From IMG/VR virus record IMGVR_UViG_3300010355_000481: DNA of 64,000 nucleotides; one strand, given 5' to 3'. The notes beneath the pieces are model-generated. The model did not search any database and had not been told where the DNA came from. It saw only the letters and a list, made by a program, of their open reading frames with translations. This DNA comes from an uncultured virus (IMG/VR IMGVR_UViG_3300010355_000481) (lineage: Duplodnaviria; Heunggongvirae; Uroviricota; Caudoviricetes; Crassvirales). Below, piece by piece: positions 6,287-55,500 of the stretch. The translations under genes and the position numbers were made by a program. Within the stretch, counting starts at the first letter, position 1. Each line of letters opens with the position of its first letter.

Positions 6287-6636
6287 TACACGCAGCAACT
6301 GTTGATTTTAATTATTCTTCATATGGAGATACACCTTTGGTTGTATTAGTTAATCCGATGAAGACATTGGTTATACCCCACGGGGACGCTAAAAAAATGC
6401 GAGTTACGGAAATGTATATTGCCGCCATTAACGAAAACGAAGGTTCTCAGATTTCCGAAGATCTTATCCACGAATTTGACGAAGAATTTCATAATTATAC
6501 GACCGAAGAGCTAGTTGATTTGTGTCGAGCAAATACCACTGTGCCTAGTATAAAAGAAAATAATTGTCAACTTACTAATAACGAATTACCTGTATTAACC
6601 CAATTATTAACTCAAGCTACTGTAATACCTATATAA
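6287..6636 (+). CDS. rIIB: RIIB-like protein, exon 2
   Basis: (L)HAATVDFNYSSYGDTPLVVLVNP...IPHGDAKKMRVTE matches the rIIB C-terminal pattern; spliced product 458 aa. Confidence 0.8.
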
Positions 6637-6812
6637 TGAATATTAAAATTTATGGTATAGATATAGCGATAAACTTACTGGTAGATAAAATGAGATATAG
6701 AATATATGAAAAAATTCAATCTGATTTAATGAGTAATATTTCAGAAACATGTTGTAAAGAAATTTCAGAAACTGTTAGAAACTTTTCCAGTCAAATTAAT
6801 AGTAATATATGA
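6636..6812 (+). CDS. microprotein (58 aa), not in ORF track
   Basis: MNIKIYGIDIAINLL...SQINSNI; TAATG overlap with rIIB, ATGA overlap with the next ORF. Confidence 0.6.
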   Translation: MNIKIYGIDIAINLLVDKMRYRIYEKIQSDLMSNISETCCKEISETVRNFSSQINSNI

Positions 6813-6976
6813 AATTAGTAGCTACAAACATTTCTTCGTGGAAATTGGGACTAACTGTTAATATGAAACATAATCCTCAATTTTTACCTATAATGGATAC
6901 ATTATGGAATGATGAATCTTTTTACTGGAATTTTCTCATGAATATTATACGCAAAATATATAAAAATATAGTATGA
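6809..6976 (+). CDS. microprotein (55 aa), not in ORF track
   Basis: MKLVATNISSW...IIRKIYKNIV; ATGA overlaps at both ends. Confidence 0.6.
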   Translation: MKLVATNISSWKLGLTVNMKHNPQFLPIMDTLWNDESFYWNFLMNIIRKIYKNIV

Positions 6977-7080
6977 AACATGTAGATGAAGAAATTTGGG
7001 ATATTATGTGTAAAGAATTACGTGCAACTGATTTACATACAGAACGGTTAGTAGAAATACAAAAACCCTCTAAGAAGTAG
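6973..7080 (+). CDS. microprotein (35 aa), not in ORF track
   Basis: MKHVDEEIWDIMCKELR...; ATGA-coupled to the upstream ORF. Confidence 0.45.
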   Translation: MKHVDEEIWDIMCKELRATDLHTERLVEIQKPSKK

Positions 7081-12943: not shown

Positions 12944-13477
12944 ATGAAACATGTAATGTTAGACCTCGAAACTATGGGTAATCACCACAATAGTGTTATT
13001 GTGAGTATTGGCGCCGTACGTTTCGAGCCTACGACAGGTGAAAAGGGAGAATCTTTTTACCGTAAAATTGACTTCGCTTCTTGTTTAAAGCTTGGATTAG
13101 AAGTCAATGCCGATACCATCGAATGGTGGATGCAACAAAATGAAGTTGCTCGTATGAAAGTTGCCAAAGTAAAGGGTACACATATTTCCGAAGTTTTAGT
13201 TTCTTTTGCCGAATTTATAGGAAAAGACGACTATATCTGGGGAAATTCTGCCCGATTTGATATTGGCATCCTTCAAAATGCTTATAATAAAGCAGAAATA
13301 GATATTCCTTGGGACTTTAAAAAAGAGCTTGATGTTCGTACCGCTATGTTCTTTAGACAAGAAATTAAGGCTAAAGTTTCATGGAATGGCCCAGCCCATG
13401 ATCCTATCGTAGACTGCAATAATCAGATTGATTATGTCAGTAAAGCGTACCAAAGTATTATGGAGAATTTCGGCTAA
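12944..13477 (+). CDS. 3'-5' exonuclease/exoribonuclease (DEDDh, DUF5051-like)
   Basis: MLDLETMG, WGNSARFD, DVRT and AHDPIVD motifs. Confidence 0.85.
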   Translation: MKHVMLDLETMGNHHNSVIVSIGAVRFEPTTGEKGESFYRKIDFASCLKLGLEVNADTIEWWMQQNEVARMKVAKVKGTHISEVLVSFAEFIGKDDYIWGNSARFDIGILQNAYNKAEIDIPWDFKKELDVRTAMFFRQEIKAKVSWNGPAHDPIVDCNNQIDYVSKAYQSIMENFG

Positions 13478-13482
13478 AAAGC

Positions 13483-13513
13483 TTGATATTACAGGCTTTT
13501 CGTCGTATCTTTG
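13483..13513 (+). promoter_or_regulatory. Bacteroidota sigma70-type promoter
   Basis: TTG (13483-85), 20-nt spacer, TATCTTTG (13506-13), matching TTG-N19-21-TAnnTTTG. Confidence 0.75.
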
Positions 13514-13560
13514 ATTAACAATTAACTCAGCTATGAGATGAATAGCGTGAAATACCAGTT

Positions 13561-14382
13561 ATGAGTAGAACAGAACAATTAGACGTCAAGCAGAACGTCG
13601 CCAAGAAAACCCTTCAATGGAAAAGTGGTGAATCTGCAGTAGCTTATTATGACAAAGAAGCCGATGGTGGTGATGGTGCCAATGTAGCACTTCCTCTTCC
13701 TTTCGAATTCGTAGTCTTAAGTAAAGATTACATATCCTTTAATGGATATTGCGAGGCCGAAAAGAAAGGTTTTTGGTCGAATGAAGTTAAGTCAAGTAAT
13801 AAAGATGCATTAGTGCATGTACGCTTGGGTAACGAAGTAGCTCGTACATTTAAAAAATCTGAATGGAAAGGTACGAAAAACAATCCGGGAGTTAAAGATG
13901 ACCCAGATTTAAAAGGGTGTAAATACACTCAAATCTTGTACATCAGTGCTCAATTGCCTGGTGATAACCAACCTGAGATTTATCGTATGATGTTGAACGG
14001 CGCTTCTTTCTCTGGGGGAATTACTGCCGACAAAAAAGGTAATGAACACGAAGGTCAAGAAAATGATGGATGGGTACGTTTTACGTCAAATCTTTGTAAG
14101 ACTGACGCTAACGCCTTATTCAAAACAGCTATTACGATTACGGAAGCTAAGTCTAAGAAAAATGGTAGTGTAAATTACACTATGCCTGTTTTCACAGCGA
14201 CTGAACTTGACGCAGATATGGAAGCTTTATACGAAGATCAATACAAAAAAGTGTTGGATTGGTTCAAGTATTACGAAGGTAAACAAGCTGCTTATAACAG
14301 TGAGAATGCCGAAACAACTGCAACACCTGTATCTAGTGCAAGCCCTGTTTCTACAGTACCAGATGATGACGCAGATCTTTAA
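13561..14382 (+). CDS. putative single-stranded DNA-binding protein
   Basis: Beta-rich, aromatic body; flexible linker and acidic tail PDDDADL; replication module; own promoter and terminator. Confidence 0.55.
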   Translation: MSRTEQLDVKQNVAKKTLQWKSGESAVAYYDKEADGGDGANVALPLPFEFVVLSKDYISFNGYCEAEKKGFWSNEVKSSNKDALVHVRLGNEVARTFKKSEWKGTKNNPGVKDDPDLKGCKYTQILYISAQLPGDNQPEIYRMMLNGASFSGGITADKKGNEHEGQENDGWVRFTSNLCKTDANALFKTAITITEAKSKKNGSVNYTMPVFTATELDADMEALYEDQYKKVLDWFKYYEGKQAAYNSENAETTATPVSSASPVSTVPDDDADL

Positions 14383-14398
14383 TCATTTATTACAATTT

Positions 14399-14435
14399 AA
14401 AATATCCCCTTACTTCGGTAGGGGGATTTTTTTTT
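14399..14435 (+). terminator. intrinsic terminator
   Basis: ATCCCCTTAC-TTCG-GTAGGGGGAT followed by a T run. Confidence 0.8.
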
Positions 14436-14439
14436 GCTT

Positions 14440-14610
14440 ATGAAAAAAATACATGGATGGGTTAATCATGAAATTAGAGATTTCCAATCTAAATTATTTG
14501 ACCATTTTCAAAACTTAGGTTCTGAACAATTTGGTACATATATAAATTTTCGTAATAACTATAAACCAAGTGCTAATCCTGCAAGAATATGGATAAAAAA
14601 AGTAATATGA
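14440..14610 (+). CDS. microprotein (56 aa), array member 1
   Basis: MKKIHGWVNHEIRD...RIWIKKVI; ATGA overlap with the next ORF. Confidence 0.6.
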   Translation: MKKIHGWVNHEIRDFQSKLFDHFQNLGSEQFGTYINFRNNYKPSANPARIWIKKVI

Positions 14611-14753
14611 ATCAAGTAAATTTTGAGATTAAAACTTCAACATTTGAAGTAAGTACGGGAATCTATATTCGTTTAAGAGAATTAAATATTCATAAACCAA
14701 AATTTAAAAGAGTAGTAAATGTTAATGGTTTTTGGGAAAAAACTAAATTATGA
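14607..14753 (+). CDS. microprotein (48 aa), array member 2
   Basis: MNQVNFEIKTS...FWEKTKL; 147 nt, ATGA at both ends. Confidence 0.6.
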   Translation: MNQVNFEIKTSTFEVSTGIYIRLRELNIHKPKFKRVVNVNGFWEKTKL

Positions 14754-14896
14754 ACAATAAAAGATGGGTTATAAACAGAAGTGCACGTTTAACTCAAAAA
14801 ATTCAATTAAGGGAGTATAAAATAGAAACTTTATATTTTTCTCAATTATTAATAAATTTAATACTTTTAAGACATCAAACACTTTTACATATATGA
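14750..14896 (+). CDS. microprotein (48 aa), array member 3
   Basis: MNNKRWVINRS...RHQTLLHI; 147 nt, ATGA at both ends. Confidence 0.65.
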   Translation: MNNKRWVINRSARLTQKIQLREYKIETLYFSQLLINLILLRHQTLLHI

Positions 14897-15039
14897 AACA
14901 AAAAGAATATGTAATAATTACAGAAATGGATCAATTTAGAATTGATAATTTACGAAATTGTGGTGCGGGACCTCTTTATCCTGTAATAAATTTAATGGTT
15001 GCAGTATCTATCAAACGTCAAATACTTTCGCATATATGA
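14893..15039 (+). CDS. microprotein (48 aa), array member 4
   Basis: MKQKEYVIITE...KRQILSHI; 147 nt; stop overlaps the primase ATG. Confidence 0.65.
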   Translation: MKQKEYVIITEMDQFRIDNLRNCGAGPLYPVINLMVAVSIKRQILSHI

Positions 15040-16028
15040 GTAGAATAAATCAAGTAGATCTCGGGCCTACTGCAGCTGAAATAGAAAATAGTATCTCCTT
15101 AGTTGATGTTATTAATAAGTATACGAGGTTAAAAGCTTCTAATGGTAAGTATATAGGTTTATGTCCTTTTCATAATGAGAAAACTCCTTCATTTACTGTT
15201 TCTCAATCTAAAGGTATATACAAATGTTTTGGTTGCGGAGAAGGAGGTAAAGGAGTTATTAATTTCATTATGAATAAGGAAAAGTTATCTTTCTCCGATG
15301 CCAGAGCTTTATTATTAACTGATTTTAAAGTAACATCTACTAAAAAAGATATTATTATTCGTCCCGAGAAAGAAACTGAACCTCTTGATATTGAGTTTGT
15401 AGACATGCCTTTTACTAAACAGCATAACAAGTATTGGGAAAAGCTCCGTATGGATCAAACTTTTCTCAACAAAAACAATGTATTTGCCGTTAAAGAATGG
15501 GCTATCGGTCGTAAAAAGAAGGGAACTATGAGGATAAAACCTAAAGAACCTGGTGAAATTACTTTTTGCTACTATGCTCCCGATATTAACGGGGAAAAAA
15601 TACTACGAATCGGGCCAACTATTACTAAAGCTGATAAATGGGTTTCTAATATTAAATCTGACTATCTATGGTATTTTGATCAATACGAACAATGTAATGA
15701 TCTTTATATCGTTAAATCATTAAAAGATACGTTGGTAGTTAAGAAATTAGGGTATTGTGCATGTGCTGTTCAATCAGAAAATGCTAGAGTACTTCTTGAT
15801 AAAAATAAAGAACGTATCGAAGCTAAATGCGAACGCCCTACTTTAGTGTTTGGTATTGATACCCAAGCTATCGGTCAACGTGATATTATCCTTTCAGAAA
15901 CCGATTGGAAGAGTTGGCGCTTAAATGAATCATTGTATGAATCTCATAAAATCTCGGATCCGGCAGAATATATAGAAGCTGGGTTCAATTATAAACAATT
16001 AAGACAAGAATTATTAAATGGAAAATGA
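15036..16028 (+). CDS. DNA primase (CHC2 zinc finger plus divergent TOPRIM)
   Basis: CPFHNEKTPSF...YKCFGCGEGG zinc finger; KSLKD...QSE...D.D...SDPAE; ATG 15036. Confidence 0.85.
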   Translation: MSRINQVDLGPTAAEIENSISLVDVINKYTRLKASNGKYIGLCPFHNEKTPSFTVSQSKGIYKCFGCGEGGKGVINFIMNKEKLSFSDARALLLTDFKVTSTKKDIIIRPEKETEPLDIEFVDMPFTKQHNKYWEKLRMDQTFLNKNNVFAVKEWAIGRKKKGTMRIKPKEPGEITFCYYAPDINGEKILRIGPTITKADKWVSNIKSDYLWYFDQYEQCNDLYIVKSLKDTLVVKKLGYCACAVQSENARVLLDKNKERIEAKCERPTLVFGIDTQAIGQRDIILSETDWKSWRLNESLYESHKISDPAEYIEAGFNYKQLRQELLNGK

Positions 16029-16209
16029 AATAATAATTGACGAAGAACCTATAGAAGAGCATCATTTTTTCGTAGATATACCACAATCAGACAAAGAAGA
16101 ATGGTTAAATATTCAAAGCTTTTCTACTAGGGAAGAAGCTATTGATTTTGCTCAATTTAAGTTTGGCGCTGACGAAAATGGTATGGTATCTTTAATATCT
16201 CAATCATAA
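16018..16209 (+). CDS. small acidic hypothetical protein
   Basis: 63 aa; FSTREEAI motif common in small phage proteins. Confidence 0.6.
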   Translation: MENEIIIDEEPIEEHHFFVDIPQSDKEEWLNIQSFSTREEAIDFAQFKFGADENGMVSLISQS

Positions 16210-31951: not shown

Positions 31952-33499
31952 TTATAACCTAACAGCTTCTACACAGAACGTAGCTTGATTGTAATATAAA
32001 TATGTGTTATCTGGGGCAGCTCCTGCACCTGTGTTAATAGCTGTAGTAGCTGCAGATCTGTTAGCAAATGATGGTAAATTATCATTGCTTATAATAAATT
32101 GATTATTTAAAGTGTTTGCAATACTATAAACTGAATCAACCCCTGCATGAGAACCTAAAGCTATTACATCATCTCCTGCACCAGAAGCTAAAGCACCAGG
32201 CCCAATACCTATAGATTGTTTTCCAGAGTATTCAAGACCTGTTGGTGCTTCTAAGTTTGTAGTTATACCAAAAGCTCCTCCACCTACATTATAAGGACAT
32301 GTTCCTGGCATTCCTATAAACAAATTCTTTTCTCCTGTATTTGATTGCCCAATATCTTTACCTATACCTATACTACGATTACCTACATTTCCTCCCATAG
32401 CTCCTCTACCTATTCCTATAGCATATTCACCAGCATTAGTAGTACCAGCAAGACTTCCTATAAGAACAACTTCTGAAGCAGCATTATCTGATCCAGCGTA
32501 TGCTCCTATAATAATTGGATTTTCCGCACCATATTGACCATACCCTGCAGCAACACCGATAAGAATAGCACTAACAGTTGTAAAACATTGTTGACCTGCT
32601 TGATAACCAATTAAAACTGAATCTGATGCGTCGCACGTATTACCTGCGTCAGCACCGATGGAAACAGTTCCACCTGCAGCACCTGTAGCATTAGTCATTG
32701 CACCAACACCTATAGCCACATTTCTTGGTCCTATATTATTTTCTCCTGTAGTTTTACCAATAAGAACACAATCATTTGCAGTGTTCATTTTACCAGCAGA
32801 GTTGCCAATCATAATATTAGTAGAACCAGTATTATTTTGACCTGTATCTTTACCTATAAATACATTATCAATAGCTGTATTATCTTTACCTGCATTAGTG
32901 CCAATACCTATAACATTGTTTGCAGGATTGTTTTCTAAAGCATTAATACCTATTGCTACCATATTAGCTCCTGTATTCAAAGATCCTGCATTAGTTCCTA
33001 TACCTATAGAATCAGCACCTGTATTTGAAGACATTGCTGACGCACCAATAGCTACAGCATTAATACCTGAATTATCATTACCTGCAAAAGATCCTATAAT
33101 TGTAGAATAATTTCCTGTATTAGAAGATCCTGCACGTTCACCTAATAAAGTTGAGTTAGTACCTGTATTTCCAGATCCTGCATTGAATCCTACAACAGTA
33201 GTAGTAGGGATAGATAAATTACCATTACCAACACGAACATCTTGATTAAGGAAAATATCAGAACTGTGTTTAATCTCTTCGGTATAATCATTAACACCAT
33301 TAGGTAATACAGCACCCGTAGCGGCATCTCTCCAAAAATCTGGAGCAGCGGTCCATACAGGAACGCCTCCAACTATATTTAAAGTTTGGCCATTTGCCCC
33401 AGGTGCTACATATGTTTGTTCGTTAATTCCGTTAGTTACTATAATAGATCCAGGTAATAATGATAATTCCTGATCTTTACTAATTCTATTCCTACTCAT
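31952..33499 (-). CDS. tail fibre/spike-like protein with ~14-aa beta-roll (YadA-head-like) repeats
   Basis: Many IG.NAG..NTG repeats; N-terminus paralogous to 33569..34492. Confidence 0.7.
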   Translation of the reverse strand: MSRNRISKDQELSLLPGSIIVTNGINEQTYVAPGANGQTLNIVGGVPVWTAAPDFWRDAATGAVLPNGVNDYTEEIKHSSDIFLNQDVRVGNGNLSIPTTTVVGFNAGSGNTGTNSTLLGERAGSSNTGNYSTIIGSFAGNDNSGINAVAIGASAMSSNTGADSIGIGTNAGSLNTGANMVAIGINALENNPANNVIGIGTNAGKDNTAIDNVFIGKDTGQNNTGSTNIMIGNSAGKMNTANDCVLIGKTTGENNIGPRNVAIGVGAMTNATGAAGGTVSIGADAGNTCDASDSVLIGYQAGQQCFTTVSAILIGVAAGYGQYGAENPIIIGAYAGSDNAASEVVLIGSLAGTTNAGEYAIGIGRGAMGGNVGNRSIGIGKDIGQSNTGEKNLFIGMPGTCPYNVGGGAFGITTNLEAPTGLEYSGKQSIGIGPGALASGAGDDVIALGSHAGVDSVYSIANTLNNQFIISNDNLPSFANRSAATTAINTGAGAAPDNTYLYYNQATFCVEAVRL

Positions 33500-42078: not shown

Positions 42079-45000
42079 TTATCGGGCGCCGAGATTGATA
42101 TTAAAGTCTTTACGGAAGTCGTCATCAAGTAGTGCACTCCAATTTAAGAACTCTTTTGTTATCGGGAATAATTTTAAGAAATATTTAGTAGGTTGTGCCT
42201 TTTTTAAATCTTTAGATTCATCTCCGGTAAATACTTCTTGGGCTTGATTAAATGATTCTTTACTTAAATTTGAAGCAAAAGCTTGTACGTCGGTTAAAAC
42301 AGAAACTAAAGGTACAGGGCTTTTTACTAAATCTGTAGCTGATTTAGGATTAATAAAAAACGTTAATTCTGAATTAGCTCTATTTAATAACAAAAGAGTA
42401 TATCGTTGAGCTGCGTTTAATTTATCATCGTCATCCCAAGCTGCCATAAGACTATATACCATGGTTGTCATCGCGACCATTATTAAAATTTCTTTTAAAG
42501 TTGATCTAATATTGGCTACATATACATTTTTAAATTCACTCAAAGTAATAAAATCTCCTTTAGTGCCACCATTATCTATGTGTTTTTGGAGTAATTCATT
42601 ATATTTTTTTACGATTGCATCGTATGTTACGTCATTAAGGTTTCCATAAGCTCCTATAAATCCTTGGATAGTTTTGGATAAATCGCGTGAGAGTAAGCTT
42701 ACGGCTGTCATATATTTACCCCAGTTTAATTGTCCAGACACATTATCGATCTCGGCGCCACCCCATCTTTGTAATACAAGTCTAGGCATCCAAGATTTAA
42801 ATTGTCCGGCAACTTGCCCTAAGATAGTGTCTTTATATTGTGCGACGTCATCTCTGGAAGCATTACCTAATATTTGTTTTGAATATTTTTGTAATATAGG
42901 TCGAAGTTTAATTTGCATTTCTTCAGTTATTCCTGATTCTTCCCCTTTCAGTTCTTTAGAAACTACTGAATCTGTTTTCTTTAATTCTTCTACACGTTTT
43001 TCTAACTCTTTTTCAAATTGATTAAGTTTATCCCATTCTCTATTTTCTGCGAATTGCTTAAACTTTGTGTCGTAATCCATTTCTGTTTTTACATAATCAG
43101 ATATTTTATACAAAGTACCATCTTTAACCATATAGTTATTCATGACTGCCATTCCTGATACGAACTGAGTAGATTTATCTACTTCACGTAACATAATCAT
43201 TAAGTTATCCGAAGTAACTATTTTATCAAATTTAGTTAAAGAGAGATTATTAATACGATGATTATTTAAATCATCTATTATCGGATCTATAGCTTGTAGC
43301 ATTTTTAAAACTCTCATTGCTTTCGGTTCGCGAAAAAGTGTTTGGGATAATGTCGCCATAGCTGTTGATGCATCTTTAGCGTTGTATACACCATTACGGC
43401 CAGCTTCAAGAAACATGTTTAAATTACCTCCAATACCTGTGACGATAGCCGATGTAGAGTTCAAACCTAATGTAGTCATACTACGCCATGTCATAATTTT
43501 ACGTAAAGTTCTAACGAGGTTTACTTCTTTACCTAATATTTTAACGGTAGATTTAATGTCAGAAAATGGAGTAACTCCATAAACAGTACGATTAATTGCT
43601 TTTTCGAGGATATCGGTATTTTTATTTACCCCTTCCGTGATTTCTTTTATTAAATTACCTTCGCTGTCTTCATTATAAACAGCATTACCTTTTACGGAAA
43701 GTACATTACTTTTACGCTTTTCTAAATCAAGTAATAAACCTGCTTGAACTTCTAATTCACTTCGAGATTCATACTCCATCATATGGTTTACATACTGACC
43801 GTATACTTTTGCAATATTAAATGATTGCTTCGAGTATTCATATGTACCATCTTCTTTCTCGGTACCAAGAGAACGTTGATATAATTTAGGTATTTTTCGA
43901 TCAATTTGTTTTGTAAGAGGGTTGATTTCGACATTCCCATTAGTAATAGTTTCTTCATCCTGATCAGAAGCTTTAAATGATTCCATAAACCTTGACATAG
44001 AGAATACGCCTGTTTCTCCTGCCAAAAGTTTTTCTTGAGAATTTGCTAATATTGAAGGAAAAAAGGTAAACTTTTGACGATAAGAAATTAACCCTAATTT
44101 GAAAGCTTTTTCGTTAATTTCCATAATCGTATTATACAATTCTAAACGTTGTGGTTTAGAAGCCATTTCTTTATATTCGGATGTAAACCACTCTTCTTCG
44201 TAATCAGGATGGATATCATAATACTTCCAATTAACACCTACAGCTTTTTCCCCTGAAATTATAACTGGAAAAGAATTCTTTTCTTCCCATTCTCCTAACT
44301 TACGCTCGAAGTACTGCTCTTTCATATCGTTGTAAGCATCGATTTGAAGATTAGCATCTTTGAATTCTTTTTCAGTCATATTACCAATATTTGTAATACG
44401 TTCTTTAAAGTGGAGAGAATCTCGTAACATTGCTGAATAATCAGCTAATCCTTGATCGTATACGTCTTGTTTAAAGATAAAATTTTCATGATTAAGCCCT
44501 TCTTCATTATTAATTTTTTCTAATTTTTCTTTTAAGTTATATTTAGAGATTAATCTTGGTTGCATTTTCCCATTAACAGTATGGAAGAAAGTTTTAATAT
44601 CTTCGGCAGTTAACCCATCTATACCTTTCCCAAGTTTTTCGTAGTACATTAATTTACCTTTATTAGCTATACCTTGGGCTTTACGTTTTATTCTATCGAA
44701 AAATGCTACAGTTTTTACCTGAGTAATGGCTGACAATTCTGTGAACCATCTTTTTGCTCCACTATATGCCATTTCATTTTCTAATATATTTGGAACTCCT
44801 TCACGTAAAGCTGCATTTTGAGTGTAATTGTTTGTACGATCAATTATACGATCAATCATATAGATAACAAGTTGCTGCTTCTGTGCCATATCATAAGATA
44901 TACCAGGCTTTCCTTCGATATCAAAATACTTTTGCATGTCTTTATACAAATCAAGCTCATACTTGATATCAGTCAATTTTTCAATATTGATAGTATCATC

Positions 45001-48000
45001 TGATAGTATGATTTGTTCTTCTGCAAGTTTATTTAATACGTCAATACGATTTAAAATGTTTTTATGATTACGAGAAATTTGTAAATCTTGGATGATTTTA
45101 CGCAAAGCATCTATTTGTAACTCTCTGGCTATTTTTTTATGATCTTTATCAGATTGTAACATATTAGAATAAACCTTAATATATCCTTCCAATTTACCTA
45201 TAAAATCATTAATGAGTTTATTATCTGGAGTTTCTCCTTCTAAAGTTACTGGTAATAAATACCGTTGTTCTTCCCCCGTAGCTGCAGATGTAGTTATAGT
45301 TTTTAAAGTAGGATCGCCAAATGTAATATCTGCCATTTGGTAATACCCACTAATAGTTTTATATGTTTCTACTCCTATAGGGATAGCTCTTGCAGTTCCT
45401 AATCGTAAACCAGTTAATTGGTGTACCATCGTAGCATATTCTTTCATTTGAAGTTTATACGCTGTTTCTTTGAAGATAGGTAACATTTCCATCTCCGATT
45501 TAGTATCGTTAAAACGATTATACTTTTGAGGTGCTACCGTTTTCCAATCATAAATATCAAAAGTACGTGGTCCAATTATAAGTAAATCTGCCGTACCTGC
45601 TCTACCTTTTTCGGTATTTAATAATCGTTGTTCTGCATAAAATTTAACAGACGGTCCATGTGTTTTAATAGCACGCTTTATAATATGATGAAGATAACCA
45701 TGTGCTTGCTCATAATAGTATTGAGAATTTGCAGGTTCTATTACCCCCAAATCTGGTGTGGATTCTGCATATACAGTTGCTCGTTGTTTGGCAAGAATAG
45801 GTTGAAAAAATTCTTGATATTTTTGTAAAGTCTCTTTTGTCGGATTTGTATAATAATCAAGTACAATTGGACGTAATGTATTAGTTGTAGGATCAACAAA
45901 GACTTCATACAGTGTATTTTGGAATACTTCATGTAAAGCTGTACCTGCATCTTTTTGAAAAGTTATTGCAGGTGTTTCTTCTAATTTATTTGGGAAGATT
46001 TTATCATAATATGGTTTAATTACATCTTCATGTACGCCATTATAGATATCCCCTGTACGATTATTCTTGTATTTTCTGTGTTCTTCAAGTTGACCTTCTT
46101 CATTATTCGTAAAAGTAGATTCCGTAACTAAATCTTCACCTAAACCTTTTAAAACATTGTGAATTTCATCAGCAGATAAGTTTTGATTTGCATTATTTGC
46201 ATATGGACGCATATCATACACAAAGTTTGAATCAAGCATCATATTCACTACTGAACGGAATGGCGTATTCAAGTTTATGTTTTGTTCAAAGTCAAATCCT
46301 AATAATTTCCCGATATTATCCAGGAACATTTTCAAATAATCTAAGAATGATTTATTTACGGAAGTTTCAACTAAACGACCTATAGCAGCTAAACCAGCTG
46401 CTTCAACAATAGCTTCTTCGATTAATTCGTCGCCAACTAATTCAGGGTTGTTTTTCTTAGTTTCAAACAATACATTTTTTCCTGTAATATCTGTTACCGC
46501 CATCACTGAATTTGAAAGTAATTGATAAAATGGTGAACCCTGTTGTTTAATCAAATTGATAAATGGGTGTAAATATTCATGAAATGGCGTATCAAATGTT
46601 GCATGATTAGGATTAATCAATACCTTACCGTCACGGATAGCCCCTCGTTGAGCCATTTCATAATCGTAACCCCAATTTACTTGAAATCTAGTAGCTAAAT
46701 CATCAAGCATTTGTTCTATATTATGAGCTAGTTTTGGTTGATTAGGTATAGATTCATTTTCAATTGGCGCTATAGTATAAGAATCTTCTATATTTTTGAT
46801 TTCATACTTATTATTTCCTATTTTAGTAGCTATACCATCTTTAACCAAAGATTCCCATACACCTTTAGAATCGTCAGTTATTTGAGAAGAACTTTGTAAC
46901 GTTTTAGTTGGGTTTATTTTGGCTAGTTCTATGTAAGCTTGTTTTGCTAACCCTTGTTTTCGGTATTGGGGGTCTACTTCTATACCCGTAGTGATCAACA
47001 CATTGGGATTATCTTGGGATAAGTATGTATTTAATTTTCCAACTGTTTTTCCATCTACTTGTATTTTTATTTCTGGTGTACCTAAAGTTTCATTAATATT
47101 CGATTGAAAATTAGAAATGGGACTGCTATATAATCGTTTAGTCTTTTCTAGTAATCCCGCACCTTTATTTATCAGACTAGTTTGCATATCTTTATACAGC
47201 TGTTCATCTGTGTAAGGTTTTACATTTCCTTCTTTAAGGAAAGTATTAAAACGATTAATAATTACTTCGGCAGTTTTTTCATTTGAGAACAATTTTTTAA
47301 TATAATTAAGAACTTTTTCTGTTAATTTCTTAATTATAAACTTAGTTTCTTGCTCTGTAATAGCATTAAAATGTTCTAATTGTAAGGCCATTCTGATATA
47401 CTCATTTGCAATGGCATATTCTAAATCCTTCCCTGTTTGTTTAAATTCATAAATCTCTTTAATTTTTTTTCTTTTTGTTTCCGACATTTGGCTATAAACA
47501 TCGTGAAACCAAGAAATAGGCGCTAAATTATTAGCAGTATAGTGTATAACTTCTTCCGTTAATATTAATTCTAGAGCATTTTTGTAGTCTTCAAATGTTT
47601 GGTAATTTCCCATTTGACTGAAAACTACTTTTGGATTTACGTAGATTCCACTATTGTCGGCACTGAAAAAGGTATTATCGTTTGTAATGTAGATTCTTCC
47701 AAGTGTTCCTCCTGGTTTTGAATTAAATAATTTACTAGTGAATTCATCTTTTCGGTTGAAAAGTCTGTCGGCAAGTAAGGCCACGAACCCCATCTCATCA
47801 CTTTCACTTTGAGTACCCCTGACGACTCTGGCCCAGATATCTTGCATAGTACTTCCTGCAGCGCCTTGCTCCAAGGCAGATAGTACCAATGATCGTGAAA
47901 TCGGTGTGGGTTGTACCGTATAAATATCACCTTTTTTGTTTGTAAATATTCGCTTATATTCCTCTTCCACCAACATTCCTGCTGATAAAATGTTTCTATA

Positions 48001-49296
48001 TTGCTCGGTAGATTGAAAGTCAACGTTTTCGATTTTTCCATTAGTTGATAAATTTGTATGCAAAAGTAATGCATTTACAGATACTTTATTCTCTGGAGTA
48101 ATAGAAACAAAATTTGTAGAAGATTTTATGCTATTTTTAAATTCTTCTATATCTTGTTTACTCCCTAATATATGAATTTGTTCTGGTTCAAATACTACAA
48201 ATACATCTCCTCTTTCTCCAAAATCTTCTGTATTTTTTCTAACAGTATTATCATTTATATCTTGTATGTCTAATATAGCAATCTTTATTCTATTTCCAAC
48301 TTTTTCTGCTATATTTTTAGTACCAAAATAAAATCCTTTTAAACCATCTCTAGTACCTTGCCCATAACCAATATAAGATTTATCAAATACTTCAAATTCA
48401 GGCTTACGAACTCCTGATGGACTAAATTCTCTTGTACCATGATAAACAATATCCTTCACTTTACTATCAGGAAATATAGTATCTAAGTATTGAGAGTAAA
48501 CTTGTAATGCTTGTTGTTTTTGTTGTGGGGTTATTTGATTTTCAAATATTTTATTAGTAAATATAAAAGGAGGATTTTCATATTTAATGTTATCATACTG
48601 AGAATTTGAAATATTTTTATTTAAAACTTTTGATAAATAACCTTGTTTTTCTAATTTAAGCATCATATCATATCCATAGCCTGATACTAAATTATCTATA
48701 ACAGGTGTATATCCTCTTTTAGTTATTAATCTATTAGCTTCTAAAAATGCTTTTAATCCCAACCCCTTTTTTAATGGATGAGTTACGTCATTTTCAAAAT
48801 TTTCAATATTAGATACAAATGCTGTTTTATTAGAATCATCAAAATAAATAGTTAGTCTTACGTCTATTCCTTTATTCTCAGTATTGATTTTTATTGAATA
48901 TTGTTCTTTATTTACAAAGTTATTATCACCTCTCTGTTTTGGTACCTTCCCCCAAACATCAGTAGCATAGGGTTTTAGCTCAATTTCTGAATATTGTTCA
49001 AACCCTAAAGCTTCATATACTTGATTAGCTAATTCAGGATTTTCATTAAATAATTCTTCTACGCCAGATTTAATAGTAGCAGTAGATTGTCCATTAAGTT
49101 CATCGATTAATCGATCTTGGGCATTACGTTTTTTAGTCCCTGGCATATTTGCCATGAACGAATTACCTACACGTTCAAATAACTTGGATTCTTTAATAGT
49201 ATTCCAAGCACCTAATGCTTTTTCCGTTAATTGATCGGCAAGTTCTGGGTTAGAATTTCTTAATCTTTGCTCGATGCTCTTTATAGTACAGCTCAT
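42079..49296 (-). CDS. giant polyvalent virion cargo protein (ART-like, GNAT, zincin, PD-(D/E)XK domains)
   Basis: IVYHGT..FDK..GFYF..VFEPEQI (ART-PolyVal-like); EVDPQYRKQGLAKQAY (GNAT); HEYLH (46567-81); AGTADLL...IYDWKT; hydrophobic C-terminus; next to the vRNAP gene. Confidence 0.75.
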   Translation of the reverse strand: MSCTIKSIEQRLRNSNPELADQLTEKALGAWNTIKESKLFERVGNSFMANMPGTKKRNAQDRLIDELNGQSTATIKSGVEELFNENPELANQVYEALGFEQYSEIELKPYATDVWGKVPKQRGDNNFVNKEQYSIKINTENKGIDVRLTIYFDDSNKTAFVSNIENFENDVTHPLKKGLGLKAFLEANRLITKRGYTPVIDNLVSGYGYDMMLKLEKQGYLSKVLNKNISNSQYDNIKYENPPFIFTNKIFENQITPQQKQQALQVYSQYLDTIFPDSKVKDIVYHGTREFSPSGVRKPEFEVFDKSYIGYGQGTRDGLKGFYFGTKNIAEKVGNRIKIAILDIQDINDNTVRKNTEDFGERGDVFVVFEPEQIHILGSKQDIEEFKNSIKSSTNFVSITPENKVSVNALLLHTNLSTNGKIENVDFQSTEQYRNILSAGMLVEEEYKRIFTNKKGDIYTVQPTPISRSLVLSALEQGAAGSTMQDIWARVVRGTQSESDEMGFVALLADRLFNRKDEFTSKLFNSKPGGTLGRIYITNDNTFFSADNSGIYVNPKVVFSQMGNYQTFEDYKNALELILTEEVIHYTANNLAPISWFHDVYSQMSETKRKKIKEIYEFKQTGKDLEYAIANEYIRMALQLEHFNAITEQETKFIIKKLTEKVLNYIKKLFSNEKTAEVIINRFNTFLKEGNVKPYTDEQLYKDMQTSLINKGAGLLEKTKRLYSSPISNFQSNINETLGTPEIKIQVDGKTVGKLNTYLSQDNPNVLITTGIEVDPQYRKQGLAKQAYIELAKINPTKTLQSSSQITDDSKGVWESLVKDGIATKIGNNKYEIKNIEDSYTIAPIENESIPNQPKLAHNIEQMLDDLATRFQVNWGYDYEMAQRGAIRDGKVLINPNHATFDTPFHEYLHPFINLIKQQGSPFYQLLSNSVMAVTDITGKNVLFETKKNNPELVGDELIEEAIVEAAGLAAIGRLVETSVNKSFLDYLKMFLDNIGKLLGFDFEQNINLNTPFRSVVNMMLDSNFVYDMRPYANNANQNLSADEIHNVLKGLGEDLVTESTFTNNEEGQLEEHRKYKNNRTGDIYNGVHEDVIKPYYDKIFPNKLEETPAITFQKDAGTALHEVFQNTLYEVFVDPTTNTLRPIVLDYYTNPTKETLQKYQEFFQPILAKQRATVYAESTPDLGVIEPANSQYYYEQAHGYLHHIIKRAIKTHGPSVKFYAEQRLLNTEKGRAGTADLLIIGPRTFDIYDWKTVAPQKYNRFNDTKSEMEMLPIFKETAYKLQMKEYATMVHQLTGLRLGTARAIPIGVETYKTISGYYQMADITFGDPTLKTITTSAATGEEQRYLLPVTLEGETPDNKLINDFIGKLEGYIKVYSNMLQSDKDHKKIARELQIDALRKIIQDLQISRNHKNILNRIDVLNKLAEEQIILSDDTINIEKLTDIKYELDLYKDMQKYFDIEGKPGISYDMAQKQQLVIYMIDRIIDRTNNYTQNAALREGVPNILENEMAYSGAKRWFTELSAITQVKTVAFFDRIKRKAQGIANKGKLMYYEKLGKGIDGLTAEDIKTFFHTVNGKMQPRLISKYNLKEKLEKINNEEGLNHENFIFKQDVYDQGLADYSAMLRDSLHFKERITNIGNMTEKEFKDANLQIDAYNDMKEQYFERKLGEWEEKNSFPVIISGEKAVGVNWKYYDIHPDYEEEWFTSEYKEMASKPQRLELYNTIMEINEKAFKLGLISYRQKFTFFPSILANSQEKLLAGETGVFSMSRFMESFKASDQDEETITNGNVEINPLTKQIDRKIPKLYQRSLGTEKEDGTYEYSKQSFNIAKVYGQYVNHMMEYESRSELEVQAGLLLDLEKRKSNVLSVKGNAVYNEDSEGNLIKEITEGVNKNTDILEKAINRTVYGVTPFSDIKSTVKILGKEVNLVRTLRKIMTWRSMTTLGLNSTSAIVTGIGGNLNMFLEAGRNGVYNAKDASTAMATLSQTLFREPKAMRVLKMLQAIDPIIDDLNNHRINNLSLTKFDKIVTSDNLMIMLREVDKSTQFVSGMAVMNNYMVKDGTLYKISDYVKTEMDYDTKFKQFAENREWDKLNQFEKELEKRVEELKKTDSVVSKELKGEESGITEEMQIKLRPILQKYSKQILGNASRDDVAQYKDTILGQVAGQFKSWMPRLVLQRWGGAEIDNVSGQLNWGKYMTAVSLLSRDLSKTIQGFIGAYGNLNDVTYDAIVKKYNELLQKHIDNGGTKGDFITLSEFKNVYVANIRSTLKEILIMVAMTTMVYSLMAAWDDDDKLNAAQRYTLLLLNRANSELTFFINPKSATDLVKSPVPLVSVLTDVQAFASNLSKESFNQAQEVFTGDESKDLKKAQPTKYFLKLFPITKEFLNWSALLDDDFRKDFNINLGAR

Positions 49297-49305
49297 AGTT
49301 GTTTA

Positions 49306-49458
49306 TTAGAAGTTTTCTCCGATGTATTTGTCTAAGATAAGTTTGTCTGATGATAATTTAGAAATATCAACTAAACTATGTACCTCATCCATTTCGATAC
49401 GTTGGATTTCGTTATATTTTTGTCCTAAAGCAAATAAGGTCCAATCTTGTAACTCCAT
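49306..49458 (-). CDS. microprotein (50 aa), not in ORF track
   Basis: MELQDWTLFALGQKYNEIQ...YIGENF between the two giant genes. Confidence 0.5.
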   Translation of the reverse strand: MELQDWTLFALGQKYNEIQRIEMDEVHSLVDISKLSSDKLILDKYIGENF

Positions 49459-49470
49459 TGCTTTAGAAGT

Positions 49471-49478
49471 CAAAGGTA
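49471..49478 (-). promoter_or_regulatory. Bacteroidota -7 promoter box
   Basis: TACCTTTG on the - strand, intergenic, just upstream of the 50-aa ORF; no clear -33 box. Confidence 0.45.
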
Positions 49479-49514
49479 CTTAATTTGTTTAGGTATATTA
49501 AATTTTAAATTTAT

Positions 49515-52500
49515 TTATAATATTAAAAAAGGACAATCTGGGTATTCTGTATTATCTTCTGTAGAAGATTCTACGGGGGTTTCTACTTCTCTTTCTTCTT
49601 GAGTTTCATCTGTTACATCTACTATTTCATCCTGTTCGAGATTATCATTAAATGCTACAGATGATTTGAATGCAGATATTGGTAAATCATCAGGTAAAAT
49701 ATAAGCACCGTATGGTAATTCTTCGCTAGGATCAAGATTTGCTGTATCGTCCGGCAATGTTACCATAGCGTATTTACCCATACCTATTTTAGTAATTTCA
49801 TGATAAATACTTGCACCTTTTGGGCCTCTACCGATACGTTCAAGCAACATTGATTTGCCTCTTAAACTTACGATTTCATTACCATCTTCATCAAATACTG
49901 CATATTCATCTCCGCTACCTGGGAATATATCTTTATCATATTTAATACTACCATAGTTGTTGATATATTCTCTTGTATCATTAATTAAATAAGTACGACC
50001 TTCGGTAGCTGTCATTAGATGATTTGTTCGTTTAACAATTTTGGCGTCGCTCCATTTTTGTTGGTGGAACATTTTCCATAGCGTGTCAAATCTTAAATCC
50101 TTCGCGTCAAACTCTTCTAAGTATTTATTAACAACTTCCGAGTATAAACCGGTTGGTAACGTAGGTTGAAGACTTACGTGCGAAGAATCTACTCCTGATT
50201 GAAGAATAGTTAACGTAACCATATCATTCATAACATTTACCACATCTGTATAAAAGTTATACTTAGGGGTATCAATAGCATCTTTACGATTTTGGGCCCA
50301 TTTAATATGCTTTTCGGCTCTTTCTAATACTTCCTCATATCTAGCAATTTCTATATTACGATCTACACTATCCTCACGACTATTGTATAATGTTACATTC
50401 ATGATAGGGTTTTCTTCCGTTTTTGGATCAGAGTATGAAGTTCTGAATGATAAATTATCAAAAAATTTATAGTCCAAATCTTTATACACATCGCTGGCTT
50501 TTAAATCTTTAATACGTTTTACTAAGTTATTTTCAGACTCTGGATCTAGTAAACTATAATTTTTACTAAATCCTGGAGAATTTTGTATAACATAAGTTAC
50601 TAAATAATTAGTAAAGCTATTTAATACTACGTCTTTATTTCTTTCGCCGATCTTAGCAGCTACTTTTTGAGTAGCTTGTTTTACTATACGACTAAGTGCT
50701 GGATTTTTTGCAAGAAGTAAGAACGGAGATAAGTAACTATTAAATTGCTCTCTATTTTTAATAATATTACCTAAATGGGTTTTTCCTGGAATATTTACGG
50801 CAGTACCAAATTTTAATCCTTCAGTCACAGCATCTAAAGCAAGATTATTTTCAACTAACGTTTTAGTTCTTTTACTATCGATATTTAAAGCATTGTTTAA
50901 GTTACCAAGTGATTGGCCTGGTTTACCTAAAGCCATAAAATCTTTTAACATAATAGCTTGAACGTATCGTGCTTTTTCTTTTTTATAATCCTTAACTCTA
51001 TCGATATCTTTTGCATAATCCATATCTGGATCGGATACTTCGATATCTTCTAGGAACTCATCTATAGCATCTTTAATATCTTTTAATTCCCAATAAGATA
51101 CTGTATCTTTTTCATTAGGACTCATATACATTTCGGCCAAAGTATTTAAAGGTATTCCTTTTTTACTTACACCGGCTAAAGCTTCTGTACCTACAAGTAA
51201 TTTAACCAAAACTTGCATGTACATGTCGGATTTGTTTCCTTTTAACCCATCGACTTCTCTGAATAATGACGTATTATTTTCTGACATACGTACAAATTCT
51301 TTAATTGCCGGTTGGTTTATAAACTTCATTGTGTCTTCAATACTTAATCCTAATCGTTGTAATAACATCAATTGAGGCATTGTATGCGTATTGATATTTA
51401 AACGAACAACGAACGGATCTTTGGCGGCATCCGCAAATCCAGATACATATTCACTGATGTTTCCTGAAATTAATCGACCTTTATTGTCAAATTGACGAGC
51501 TAAACTGTGATACCCTTCGATAGCTTTTACTTTATCAAATTTTAATGCGGGAATTTCTTCTATATGAAGATCTCCGATTTGAGCCATGCCATGTCCTGTT
51601 ACATTTACAGCACCAATACCTACTAAATCTTTGGCGGCACTTAATATATGACGTTGACTGGTTGAACCTAATAAACTTGATAATGAATAGGATTTAACTG
51701 AAGATTGATCATTTAGAATACTATCCATTTTTTCTAAAGTAGCTGCAGAATTCGGGGCTAAGTGTTGTAATCTATTCTGAGGAAGAGATAACAAATTACG
51801 CATTAGTTCGATATTTCTATTTTCTAATGCTTCTCGGCTATTCTGCGCACCAATTGATAATTCACGGAATTGATCTAAAGACATTATATTTTCTTGGCCA
51901 TCTGACAAGAATTGTCCTAAGTATGCATAATCTGCTGCGGCATCTGCTTTTTCTTCTCGATAAGCATCTCGTTGAGTAAGAAAAGCATTCAATAAATCTC
52001 TACGAACACCTCCTTCTTCGATATAATCTGCATACTCTTCTAACATTTCTTCTAAAATAGGAATTACTTGCTGAGAGTCTACGATTTGTTCATAGTAAGT
52101 TTTTGTATTTCTATTATAAGCTTGAAGAGTTATACTTTGTGTATTTTCTAATTGAGCAATCCATGCTTTAGTAAAATCACGGTTCCACATTGTTTTATCA
52201 AACCCTGATTTATTAATAAAATCAGTAGTCGATTGGTTATCCCAATATTGTTGTTTTATACTTAAAGGTAAACTGAAGAATACATTAGATCTGAATTTCT
52301 TTTGTTTTTCTTGCTCGTTAAGTTTAGTATAAAGATCATTCAACTCTTTGTTTGATAATTCTAAACGTTCTTTTATAAGATTTTTTTGAATCTTATATTC
52401 TTTAGCTAAACGTTTTCTAACATATTTATTATAACGACGTTCAACCCCAGCTTCCGTTTCATCTTGATCAAATTCTACATAATGGTAATAATTGTTTTCA

Positions 52501-55500
52501 TCAACATAATAATGAGGAAGGTATAGATTCAATTTATCGATATCGAAATCTGAACCTGATTTACCTACAAGTTCTGCCGGCACCATAATACTATCACCAT
52601 AAGATTCATCTAAGAATCCTACTACTTGGATTTTCTCTGCTTGGCCTAATGATTGAGTTGGGATACGATATCCAAGTATTTCTAATAATTTAGTATCGAC
52701 ATTGTTTATATCAACCCCATTATCAGCTAAATATGATGGAATTTTAACTTCAATAGTACCATCTTCACGTAATTTTAAATCATTAGAACCTATCTTAACG
52801 TTTGCTAATTCTTCTGGTGTTAGTGTTTCAGGTGAAGTTACTTTTTGATAAATACCATCTTTTAGTATCAATAAGTCATTACTATTGCGTAAGAATACTG
52901 ATGATACTTGAGGAGCTTGAGTACCTTTTACTTTTTGGTGCACAAGTGCTTTATCCAATATACTATTCAATACATACTCGATACGATTTCTTTCTGTCGA
53001 AGCGTCAAACATGTATCGGAGTTGTCTAGTTTCTGGGTCAATATCAAACATATCGATAACATTCTGAGGCATATCAAGGCTAATTGCTTGAGCTTTCAAT
53101 GTTTCAGATAAATTTTCTACGCTATCTACTTCGTATTCTCCAGTAACAGTATTAAGACGTATACCTAGTTTTGTATATAAAGTATCGGCGCCTAATGCAA
53201 TCATGTCATTAAGGTTTTGATAATAATCCGATATAGCTTTTACTACGGTAGGATCATCCATATGCGCCGTAAGATTCGAAGTAATAATTTTCGTAATCTG
53301 CACACCTCGATTTGATTCTGCTTTATATACATTAGCTGTTTCTACTTGCAGTCCAAAATCATCCATATGAATTCGTTGTACTGGGGGTATATCGTCAATT
53401 GTTTGACCTACTTTATCGTAAAGAGGAGTTAAAGTGCCTTGTTTATTTACCAAGTTACCCATTTTTTGTCCTGAATTAAAACCGATAAGGTCAATTTTAT
53501 TCTTTTGTGCTTGTAAATATATTTTTTCAAGTTGAGGATTACCTTCAACTCTACTCCAAGATAGTGGCATTACCGAATTCTTTAAAAAGATAGGAGTTAA
53601 TATATCTATTTTTTCGTTATATCCAGATCCTTGAGGTTTAATTACTTGAAGTACAGCTATAGGTTTTGGTTTGGCTAATATTGTTTCATCTTTTGCTTTA
53701 GTGAAAATTGCATGTTTTGTCAAATATTTATAATGACGAGGATCTTCTTTATCGAATTTATTTCTCGTCACACGTTCATAAGCTTGTTCCCATTGAACTC
53801 TTGCAATTTGTGTACTAGTAAGTTTACCACTAGTGTACATCATATCAAACCATCCGTCCAAAGTCATAAATGCTTGAGCATCTGCCATCTCTAATTTAAC
53901 ATAAGGAGCTATAAGTGTACCTTTAACCGGTTTTTCTGGAATTTCGATAACTTTACCTGTTGTTTCATCAAATTTAGCACCTACGATAGCTTCTATTTCT
54001 GTATGCGTAAGATTTTGATCAGTATGAGCTTTATAAAAAGTTTCTGCTAAGTAATTAATGGATGACGATACGGCCTCCACATCTTCATATGATACAAAAT
54101 TATAATATGAATCACGTACTTTTCCATCTAAACGAGGACGATATGTATCCATTTCTGACATAACTTCTGAAGAAGTGGCGGAAGTTTGTTTACTACTAGT
54201 GATAAAGTTCCAACGTTTTTGGGCATCACCTGGTTTGTACATACTTAAGTTACCATAAGCTAACGCTTGTAAATCACGATTGAATACTTCATAATTATAA
54301 AATATGAATCGGAATAAAGGCCCCTTATTGTTTTTATCTCTTAAAGCTTCGGCATAAGTTTCAGTCCAAGAAAGTGTTTTTGTTACGAGCTCTTCTAAAC
54401 CTGTAACTGGATTAAAATCTACCTCTGTGTAAGTAGCTTGAGGTATTTTCATAACCTTACATGCTTGCTCTGCATCTAAGTACTTTGCGATATCCAATTC
54501 TTGGAATTTATCCAATACTGATTTATATTCGGCTTTTACATGGTTTTCTAGTCGTGGGAATACATATTCGATAAATCTATCAACATCTTTATTTTTAAGT
54601 AGTTGATCGTACTCTGCTTGGGTTAAATTTAGAATATCGGTGAACGTTCCTAAATTAACTTTATCCTTCGTATTATCTCTAAATATCTTAACGTCTTCTG
54701 CTAGTTTTTTATTAAATAGGATATCAATTTCGTCACGAAGTTGTGGTATAACAAAATCATTAATATATATCTGATGATCAGTTTTACCTGTAGCACAATA
54801 TCTACTATAATCAACTAATTGTCTTCCTAATTGTAGACCGTATTCAGTACTTTTATCTGAATTAATTAATAATGAAAATCTATTATGTAATACACCATTA
54901 GCTTTTAATATCAATTTATCTGATTCTGGTAAAGAGGTAAAAGAACGCCCTTCATTGGTTACGCCATTCATCAGTCCATCAAAAGTTACTAGAGTTAAAT
55001 TTGATTTTGCATTTTTATTAGTTTTATTGTCAAACAAAACCCCATTTCGACGTAAAAATACATTATTAGCTAAACCTACTTTTAACTGACCATTTTTACC
55101 TACTAAATGAGGTAAAGACTTCATTGCATCTAATAAATCTGCTGCCCCATTAATTTTATTGAACATACGTCCAATAGTATTCGGGTTGATAATAGTGTGG
55201 GCAGTTTTACCAGTTGCTTTACGGAAGTTTTGTAAATTTTCATTACTATCCACTACACTATTTTTTGCTAATGTATAGATACGTGTTCTAGCTTGTTTTT
55301 CAAACAATTCTTTTATAGACATCGTAGGATTTTGCATTAATACCCCTAAGACAGCTTGAAGAGCTTCATCTTTTTCTGGGGTACGTGCACCAAAATCCAT
55401 CCCTAAATTCTTAAAGAAACGATAGTTTTGTATAGGGTTAACATTAGCTTCGAAGTTTCTAAAAACTACCATATTGTTTTTATTAATAGCTAAATGATCA

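Follow-up and report, generated by a model that had tools for sequence, protein, structure and literature searches.

A chain of tiny genes upstream of an uncultured phage's primase gene differs between natural strains by one 143-nucleotide unit

The DNA described here, which we call the window, is a stretch of 64,000 nucleotides (nt) from the virus record IMGVR_UViG_3300010355_000481. It contains an apparent gap between the gene for a 273-amino-acid (aa) protein, termed SSB-like here, and the gene for a DnaG-type primase. Four small open reading frames (ORFs), m1 to m4, occupy this interval on the plus strand. An earlier note on this DNA had described them as a tandem-amplified, rapidly diversifying array of microproteins coupled to the primase. 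Our analysis bears out the layout: ORFs of 56, 48, 48 and 48 aa tile positions 14440-15039 and are linked by ATGA overlaps at 14607, 14750, 14893 and 15036, the last of which provides the ATG of the primase gene. The four ORFs are:

14440..14610, plus strand: m1, ORF of 56 aa (codon log-odds 0.30)
14607..14753, plus strand: m2, ORF of 48 aa from the ATGA start, or 54 aa from the ATG at 14589 (codon log-odds 0.33)
14750..14896, plus strand: m3, ORF of 48 aa (codon log-odds 0.12)
14893..15039, plus strand: m4, ORF of 48 aa, a probable diverged relative of m3 (codon log-odds 0.30)

If these frames were open by chance, the interval could be an AT-rich origin or a regulatory spacer. Such a non-genic element would fit the GC content, which reaches the minimum of the neighbourhood here (0.22-0.29), a weak 16-nt tandem repeat inside m4 (14914-14960; three copies, 74% matches, Tandem Repeats Finder score 48) and the fact that no promoter was found. 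Against it, dinucleotide shuffles of the 600 nt yielded at least four open stretches of at least 47 codons in 1 of 5,000 cases, and one such stretch in 47%. Codon usage is gene-like in all four frames, given controls of 0.36 ± 0.13 for chunks of the window's long genes and -0.82 ± 0.25 for off-frame chunks, and the minus strand of the array holds a single ORF, of 37 aa. A protein-level conservation pattern that points to coding, and a natural deletion that preserves frame and stop/start exactly, both described below, likewise speak against a spacer, which we regard as very improbable. That is, at the level of the sequence these observations show four protein-coding genes packed in a stop/start chain. 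ATGA links are not a general habit of this phage: nine ATGA junctions flanked on either side by 40 or more open codons occur on the plus strand of the window, five of them at 14440-15036; at 14440, the ORF that closes is merely an off-frame one.

The equal size that had been ascribed to the last three members holds in so far as m2, m3 and m4 each span 147 nt, with starts 143 nt apart; for m2, the equality hinges on the choice of start. All public gene calls begin m2 at the ATG at 14589 and so give the 54-aa form. Two substitutions in the m1/m2 overlap change Ile to Val in the m1 frame, but Asp to Gly and Asn to Ser in the extended m2 frame. This mildly favours the 48-aa start. The motif VNxEI, also pointed out before, is common to m1 (VNHEI) and m2 (VNFEI).

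Comparison of the links within the chain shows that a junction consists of the last ~7 codons of a gene, its stop and the next start, and that it comes in two kinds, A and B, each a direct repeat around one gene:

14584..14610, plus strand: type A, copy 1; end of m1 (..IWIKKVI), stop and m2 start
14727..14753, plus strand: type A, copy 2, diverged in this strain; m2 end and m3 start
14876..14896, plus strand: type B, copy 1, 21 nt; holds the crossover letters ACTTT at 14881-14885
15019..15039, plus strand: type B, copy 2; m4 end, stop and primase start

As the earlier note had observed, m3 and m4 share a 21-nt 3' end, CAAAYACTTTYRCATATATGA, at 14876-14896 and 15019-15039. It occurs nowhere else in the 64 kb, a count that is descriptive, the pattern having been derived from these two sites. 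Over the 23 nt before the ATGA, 18 positions are identical between m3 and m4; this was reached by none of 378 control pairs from other genes of the window, not one of which exceeded 15. Three codons differ between the type-B junctions and all three differences change the residue, and the identical codons match at third positions too.

For type A, the ends of m1 and m2 in the window agree at 12 of 23 nt, and 2.9% of the 378 control pairs do as well. Two m2 variants of a more distant relative, on contigs of 589 and 1131 nt, have unchanged cores and end in ..IWLKKVI, which is an m1-like ending (p=0.0005 for m1 versus this variant; p=0.16 for m1 versus the m2 of the window). Since the m2 of this relative carries the C-terminus of m1, the type-A repeat brackets m2 in that lineage, as type B brackets m4 here. 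A match of 17 of 21 nt between the m2 start and the primase start was dropped, because we estimate that 900 nt would contain a few pairs of this kind by chance.

Another run of chained small ORFs, of 99, 58, 55 and 35 aa, is found elsewhere in the window (6337-7080), with an endonuclease gene on one side and the gene at 7119 on the other. Its members are joined by TAATG at 6636 and by ATGA at 6809 and 6973, and the junction at 6809 is similar to that of m1 and m2.

To compare strains, contigs of four sequencing runs were aligned to 13400-16200. In contigs of two wastewater runs, X3 (9503 nt) and X5 (1214 nt), position 14880 is joined to 15024, and exactly 143 nt are skipped:

14881..15023, plus strand: 143-nt segment absent from the natural variant; end of the m3 junction and the m4 body

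Five ambiguous letters (ACTTT) fit both sides of the skip, which puts the crossover within the 21-nt type-B junction. A contig of run X2 (628 nt, over 14546-15173, one difference) carries both cassettes. Two type-B cassettes are thus present in X1 and X2, and one in X3 and X5; X6 had no cover over 14434-15091. The earlier note had proposed checking the number of cassettes between the flanking genes, and the interval from the SSB-like gene to the primase gene does vary, by exactly one 143-nt unit, and the ATGA chain stays intact. Because the two type-B junctions match exactly over no more than 9 consecutive nt, this is unlikely to be a k-mer assembly artefact.

The same variant appears in a protein collection that is independent of the run data. 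This collection holds a 373-aa primase, P0013, on three contigs, the longest of 9503 nt, and m3 and m4 on four contigs each. P0013 has a 43-residue N-terminal extension, which is reproduced exactly by the primase frame when read across the 143-nt skip. The reconstruction uses the five listed single-nucleotide polymorphisms and five further single-base changes, each uniquely determined. These ten changes leave the surviving cassette open over 48 codons; it is identical to m3 at 42 of 48 residues, ends with the last codons of m4 and places an ATGA on the primase start. A change from TAA to CAA at 14818 in the X3-type strain opens the primase frame back to an ATG at 14764. The surviving cassette was probably not called as a gene because of this overlapping primase frame, and its missing gene call would in turn explain why it was absent from a word search of 5.8 billion sequences. 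Gene conversion from m4 into the surviving cassette was rejected, as only one of the ten variant letters matches m4.

Strain divergence across the aligned region is uneven. Five clustered differences at 13527-13540 are followed by none at 13541-14210 and by about 2.6-8% from 14211 onward. The strains are therefore mosaic, and the sequence pattern suggests a recombination boundary inside the SSB-like gene. At 15150-15250, unrelated contigs pile up in all four runs (depth 12.8-52.8 versus ~2-5 elsewhere); the pile-up stems from the conserved CHC2 zinc-ribbon motif, which DnaG-type primases of other organisms share, and not from phage variation.

m3 and m4 align without gaps at 13 of 48 identical residues (27%), in agreement with the earlier count. 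At the nucleotide level, 72 of 143 positions are identical in register, against a background of 39.5 ± 6.0; among 9,100 control pairs taken 143 nt apart, 72 matches were reached by the m3/m4 pair itself and by no other. Shuffling the residues gave p ~1e-4, a gapped shuffle p=0.0025, and the correlation of the two hydropathy profiles (r=0.45) is the top value among 47 circular shifts. The likeness is strongest towards the two ends, with 17 of 26 nt at the 5' end, 19 of 26 at the 3' end and 36 of 91 in the middle (p ~0.02-0.03). These comparisons suggest that m3 and m4 are probably diverged copies from one old duplication. With cassettes 50% identical and strains 2-3% apart, the difference in cassette number reflects either a recent deletion or acquisition from another phage, and no recent duplication. 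m2 was considered as a third paralogue and rejected (in-register p 0.29-0.57; hhalign P 0.08), and the output of Tandem Repeats Finder contains no 143-nt array.

The earlier note had likened the array to an accordion of host-takeover or anti-defence peptides. In an arms race of this kind, the cassettes would be amplified again and again and would diversify quickly under positive selection. In poxvirus-type accordions the copies are recent, nearly identical and expand under a known selective pressure. Tandem related copies and strain differences in copy number are common to both systems: here, strains carry one or two type-B cassettes. An arms race would also fit the orphan status of m3 and m4 and the concentration of strain differences in the m3 cassette, at 11 of 143 nt against 8 of 305 nt in m1-m2. 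However, there are just two related copies, at 50% nt and 27% residue identity, and near-identical ones are absent, which sets this locus apart from recent amplification of the poxvirus type.

Selection was assessed between the window and the X3-type strain by Nei-Gojobori counts, giving the proportions of non-synonymous (pN) and synonymous (pS) differences:

m1: 1 synonymous, 2 non-synonymous, pN/pS 0.44
m2: 2 synonymous, 3 non-synonymous, pN/pS 0.36
m3: 4 synonymous, 6 non-synonymous, pN/pS 0.33 (pS 0.17, pN 0.057)

The extra divergence of m3 is not confined to non-synonymous changes, since its pS is elevated too. Five of the ten m3 changes were deduced from the alternative frame, in which all 10 known substitutions change the residue and in which silent changes would go unseen. 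A homologue of m1, also of 56 aa, is 79% identical, mostly with conservative changes. m2 is highly conserved: residues 10-39 (54-aa form) are invariant in all five variants, and its core is unchanged in the relative whose m1 is 79% identical. In the primase, seven of the eight listed differences are synonymous, and the proteins of the two strains are 98% identical. The rapid diversification that had been proposed is not supported, given the conservation of m1 and m2 and the ratios for m1-m3. Taken together, the substitutions suggest that the microprotein frames are under moderate purifying selection; signs of diversifying selection are absent. Of the tandem-amplified array, the probable duplication of m3 and m4 and the varying cassette number stand, while the lack of any detectable kinship of m2 with m3 and m4 and the lack of recent amplification do not fit, and we consider an arms-race accordion unlikely.

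Signals for transcription and translation were sought in the sequence. A terminator lies just upstream of the chain:

14404..14435, plus strand: intrinsic terminator (10-bp stem with 5 GC pairs, 14404-14427, and a T8 run; fold z-score -2.5)

The terminator ends 4 nt before the ATG of m1. No Bacteroidota-type promoter core was found at 14383-15036. The only TAnnTTTG near the array, at 13506 and ~55 nt upstream of the SSB-like start, could be a core of this type. Shine-Dalgarno motifs were found at 0 of 45 gene starts examined, which are preceded by A/T-rich sequence. The host thus presumably initiates translation independently of such motifs, and their lack, together with the similarity of the primase to crAss-like ones, hints at a Bacteroidota-type host. 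The junction RNAs are unstructured, with fold z-scores of -0.56 to +0.57. The ATGA overlap is kept across the 143-nt deletion and in the m2 variants.

One way to read this arrangement is as a relay of leader ORFs, whose peptides are irrelevant and whose chain passes ribosomes that enter behind the terminator on to the start of the primase gene, thereby setting primase output. A relay would explain why the ATGA chain finishes on that start, why the type-B junction is conserved as DNA, why m4 is dispensable and why the examined starts lack Shine-Dalgarno sites. It would leave unexplained the invariant m2 core, the conservative nature of the m1 changes among relatives and ratios of pN/pS below 0.5 in m1-m3. 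Moreover, four ORFs exceed what a relay needs, and in a related lineage the start of the primase gene is incompatible with an ATGA overlap. We therefore think it improbable that the chain serves as a relay only.

Protein, profile and tblastn searches found no homologue of m1-m4 outside this phage lineage, to which the relatives of m1 and m2 are confined. An m3/m4 profile retrieved nothing beyond the two proteins from 1.84 billion representatives, as did the word search of 5.8 billion sequences. The best tblastn match of m1-m4 in 50,697 phage records had an E value of 0.3. No Pfam or PHROG family was assigned to any of the four; zf-MYST was rejected as a candidate for m3 (14.6 bits versus a cutoff of 28.8). 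With Rfam, the best match on the array (E 0.14) fell far short of the gathering score. In known phages, blastn found just three short matches to the primase zinc finger. Viral contigs, whether approached with the primase, the SSB-like protein, m1 or primase alignments, gave distant zinc-ribbon relatives of at most 57% identity or none. Metagenome contigs searched with the primase yielded distant matches alone, and genome contigs no match.

Structure prediction with AlphaFold2 models m3 as one helix (residues 2-47; predicted local distance difference test (pLDDT) 81, predicted template modelling score (pTM) 0.44, from an alignment of two sequences). The N-terminal half of m3 is basic and its C-terminal half hydrophobic, and the hydropathy pattern of m4 is alike. 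m2 is basic and probably beta-rich; its model, strand-helix-strand-strand, is unreliable (pLDDT 57, pTM 0.27). In a protein atlas, nothing was found for m3, and m2 was placed near Arm-type DNA-binding clusters at 0.87-0.88, which is under the 0.9 level and serves as a lead only. For this domain (PF17293), neither the 48-aa nor the 54-aa form of m2 gave a Pfam family at E values up to 10, and there was no match in the PDB.

The genes on either side of the array are:

13561..14382, plus strand: upstream flank, ORF call for a 273-aa protein with an acidic C-terminal tail
15036..16028, plus strand: DnaG-type primase, 330 aa (Pfam Zn_ribbon_DnaG, 4e-30; PHROG DNA primase)

The upstream protein had been called an SSB. 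This label was not confirmed by Pfam, PDB or PHROG, in which no known SSB or OB-fold family was matched: there is no Pfam family above cutoff and no PDB match, and the match to PHROG 6706 (5e-12) is to a family without an assigned function. Further matches are hypothetical proteins of Mycobacterium phages at just 24-32% identity. The acidic tail is the sole feature in which we take it to resemble SSB proteins. The closest full-length relatives of the primase are those of crAss-like phages (25-28% identity). Primases of 330 aa are also encoded on variant contigs of 8805 and 1639 nt. Both genes belong to a block of DNA metabolism on the plus strand at 1-27 kb, where Pfam and PHROG identified rIIA/rIIB-like proteins, helicases, an Rv2179c-like exonuclease, the DnaG-type primase, an exonuclease VIII-like protein (1e-16 in PHROG) and a UvsX-like recombinase (6e-61 in PHROG).

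The source phage is AT-rich, uncultured and tailed. Its proteins are also found on a contig of 138,596 nt, and the runs containing the array stretch are activated-sludge and wastewater metagenomes, with no RNA run among those listed. We take the phage to be a novel one from wastewater, of ~139 kb. Far from the array, the minus strand at 42079-62057 holds giant ORFs of 2405 and 4180 aa which, like five further large minus-strand ORFs, have no PHROG match at E values up to 1e-5. A 515-aa ORF at 31955-33499 has tail-spike as its one PHROG match.

This setting invites the reading that the microproteins are dedicated replication accessories which bind the primase, a helicase or the SSB-like protein and are made in a fixed ratio with the primase. 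The array does lie inside the replication module, between the SSB-like and primase genes and with helicases and a recombinase near, and the lone long helix predicted for m3 would need a partner. The faint atlas pointer from m2 to Arm-type DNA-binding domains leans the same way. Yet m4 is missing from natural strains, and other phages with a related primase have no homologues. Sequence searches of Pfam and the PDB with m2 came back empty, and its model is too poor to compare. A dedicated role of this kind appears doubtful to us. From the context we infer, more broadly, that m1-m4 are small, partly dispensable accessory proteins of an early or replication programme.

We favour the reading that the interval is a slot in the replication module in which small accessory genes are gained and lost through their junctions, and give it a probability of roughly 60%. 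Recombination between repeated junctions would remove, and could add, exactly one gene, leaving the next start and the hand-over of ribosomes intact. The UvsX-like recombinase and the exonucleases encoded by the phage could carry out this step, and m3 and m4 may stem from one old duplication made in the same way. Transcription of the chain would either run on past the upstream terminator or start at a promoter that escaped recognition, and translation would then pass from gene to gene by termination-reinitiation. Its products would be dispensable or modulatory microproteins, most likely for host takeover or as replication accessories, with m3 and m4 as single amphipathic or hydrophobic helices and m2 as a small basic domain.

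Several observations weigh against this slot. Just one indel event was seen, both runs are from 2023 wastewater and possibly from one campaign despite different study codes, and the data do not polarise deletion versus acquisition of m4. The similarity of m3 and m4 escaped BLASTP (E up to 100) and phmmer (E ~5); given how weakly the middle 91 nt are alike, shared ends around unrelated bodies are possible. Purifying selection was estimated from 3, 5 and 10 changes in m1, m2 and m3, with 1 of the 11 differences in the m3 cassette unseen, and the invariance of m2 in a distant relative could reflect recent mosaic exchange instead of constraint. The stretch from the terminator to the primase gene yielded no promoter, and the plus strand has no sigma-70-like site at 13512-15329. 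A primase of 91% identity starts with Met-Ala, as read from the protein. The G that must follow its ATG excludes an ATGA overlap, and the last link is thus not obligatory; the coupling of chain and primase proposed earlier is seen in the window and is not universal. Finally, both the coding status and the function of m1-m4 are read from DNA and its translations.

The gain/loss slot can be taken one step further. The ~21-nt junction may be a selected 'plug-and-play' device of phages whose hosts do without Shine-Dalgarno sites, serving at once as C-terminal tag, stop, next start and recombination hot spot. The slot could then take up, duplicate or lose any small gene with matching ends while expression of the essential primase gene downstream stays unaffected, and m3 and m4 would be fast-turnover cargo for host takeover or counter-defence. 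We put this forward tentatively and as rather unlikely in its full form.

The closest described system is the modular shuffling of ORFans by PeSL motifs in hyperplastic regions of T4-type phages (Arbiol et al. 2010, PMC2839356; Comeau et al. 2014, PMC4122927). Both systems have small non-essential ORFans between core genes and indels of whole genes that end in flanking repeats. Here too, the indel end points lie in a repeated motif that flanks ORFans, namely at the type-B joint and, in relatives, in type A around m2. In contrast, PeSLs are intergenic cassettes of a strong sigma-70-like early promoter and a stem-loop terminator, whereas the repeat reported here lies inside a coding overlap and has no sigma-70-like promoter and no stem-loop. 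In our literature search, the coverage of which was incomplete, we came across no account of junction repeats embedded in coding sequence like those reported here.

In other organisms, termination-reinitiation at ATGA overlaps is well documented (Huber et al. 2019, PMC6728339), and such coupling is the subject of a 2025 review (PMC12548453). The chain shares the co-directed stop/start overlaps; it differs in having no Shine-Dalgarno sequence in or before the junctions, four links in a row and repeated junctions. By analogy, the downstream genes of the chain, including the primase gene, may be translated by ribosomes that terminate upstream. With regard to function, T4 55.2 is a small ORFan that inhibits topoisomerase I (PMC4396842). 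Like ORFans of this type, m1-m4 are very small, phage-specific, situated among genes of DNA metabolism and dispensable in some strains, but we see no relationship in sequence or fold to T4 55.2.

A slot for swapping genes is in itself fairly ordinary, and the immediate biological payoff is modest. The locus nevertheless provides a strain-resolved example of how a phage gains or loses tiny orphan genes without breaking an operon, with the recombination site built into the overlapping stop and start, unlike the intergenic cassettes of T4-type phages. Should the arrangement prove general, its junctions could flag exchangeable microprotein cargo in uncultured phages, and they could explain why runs of equal-sized small ORFs persist beside essential genes.

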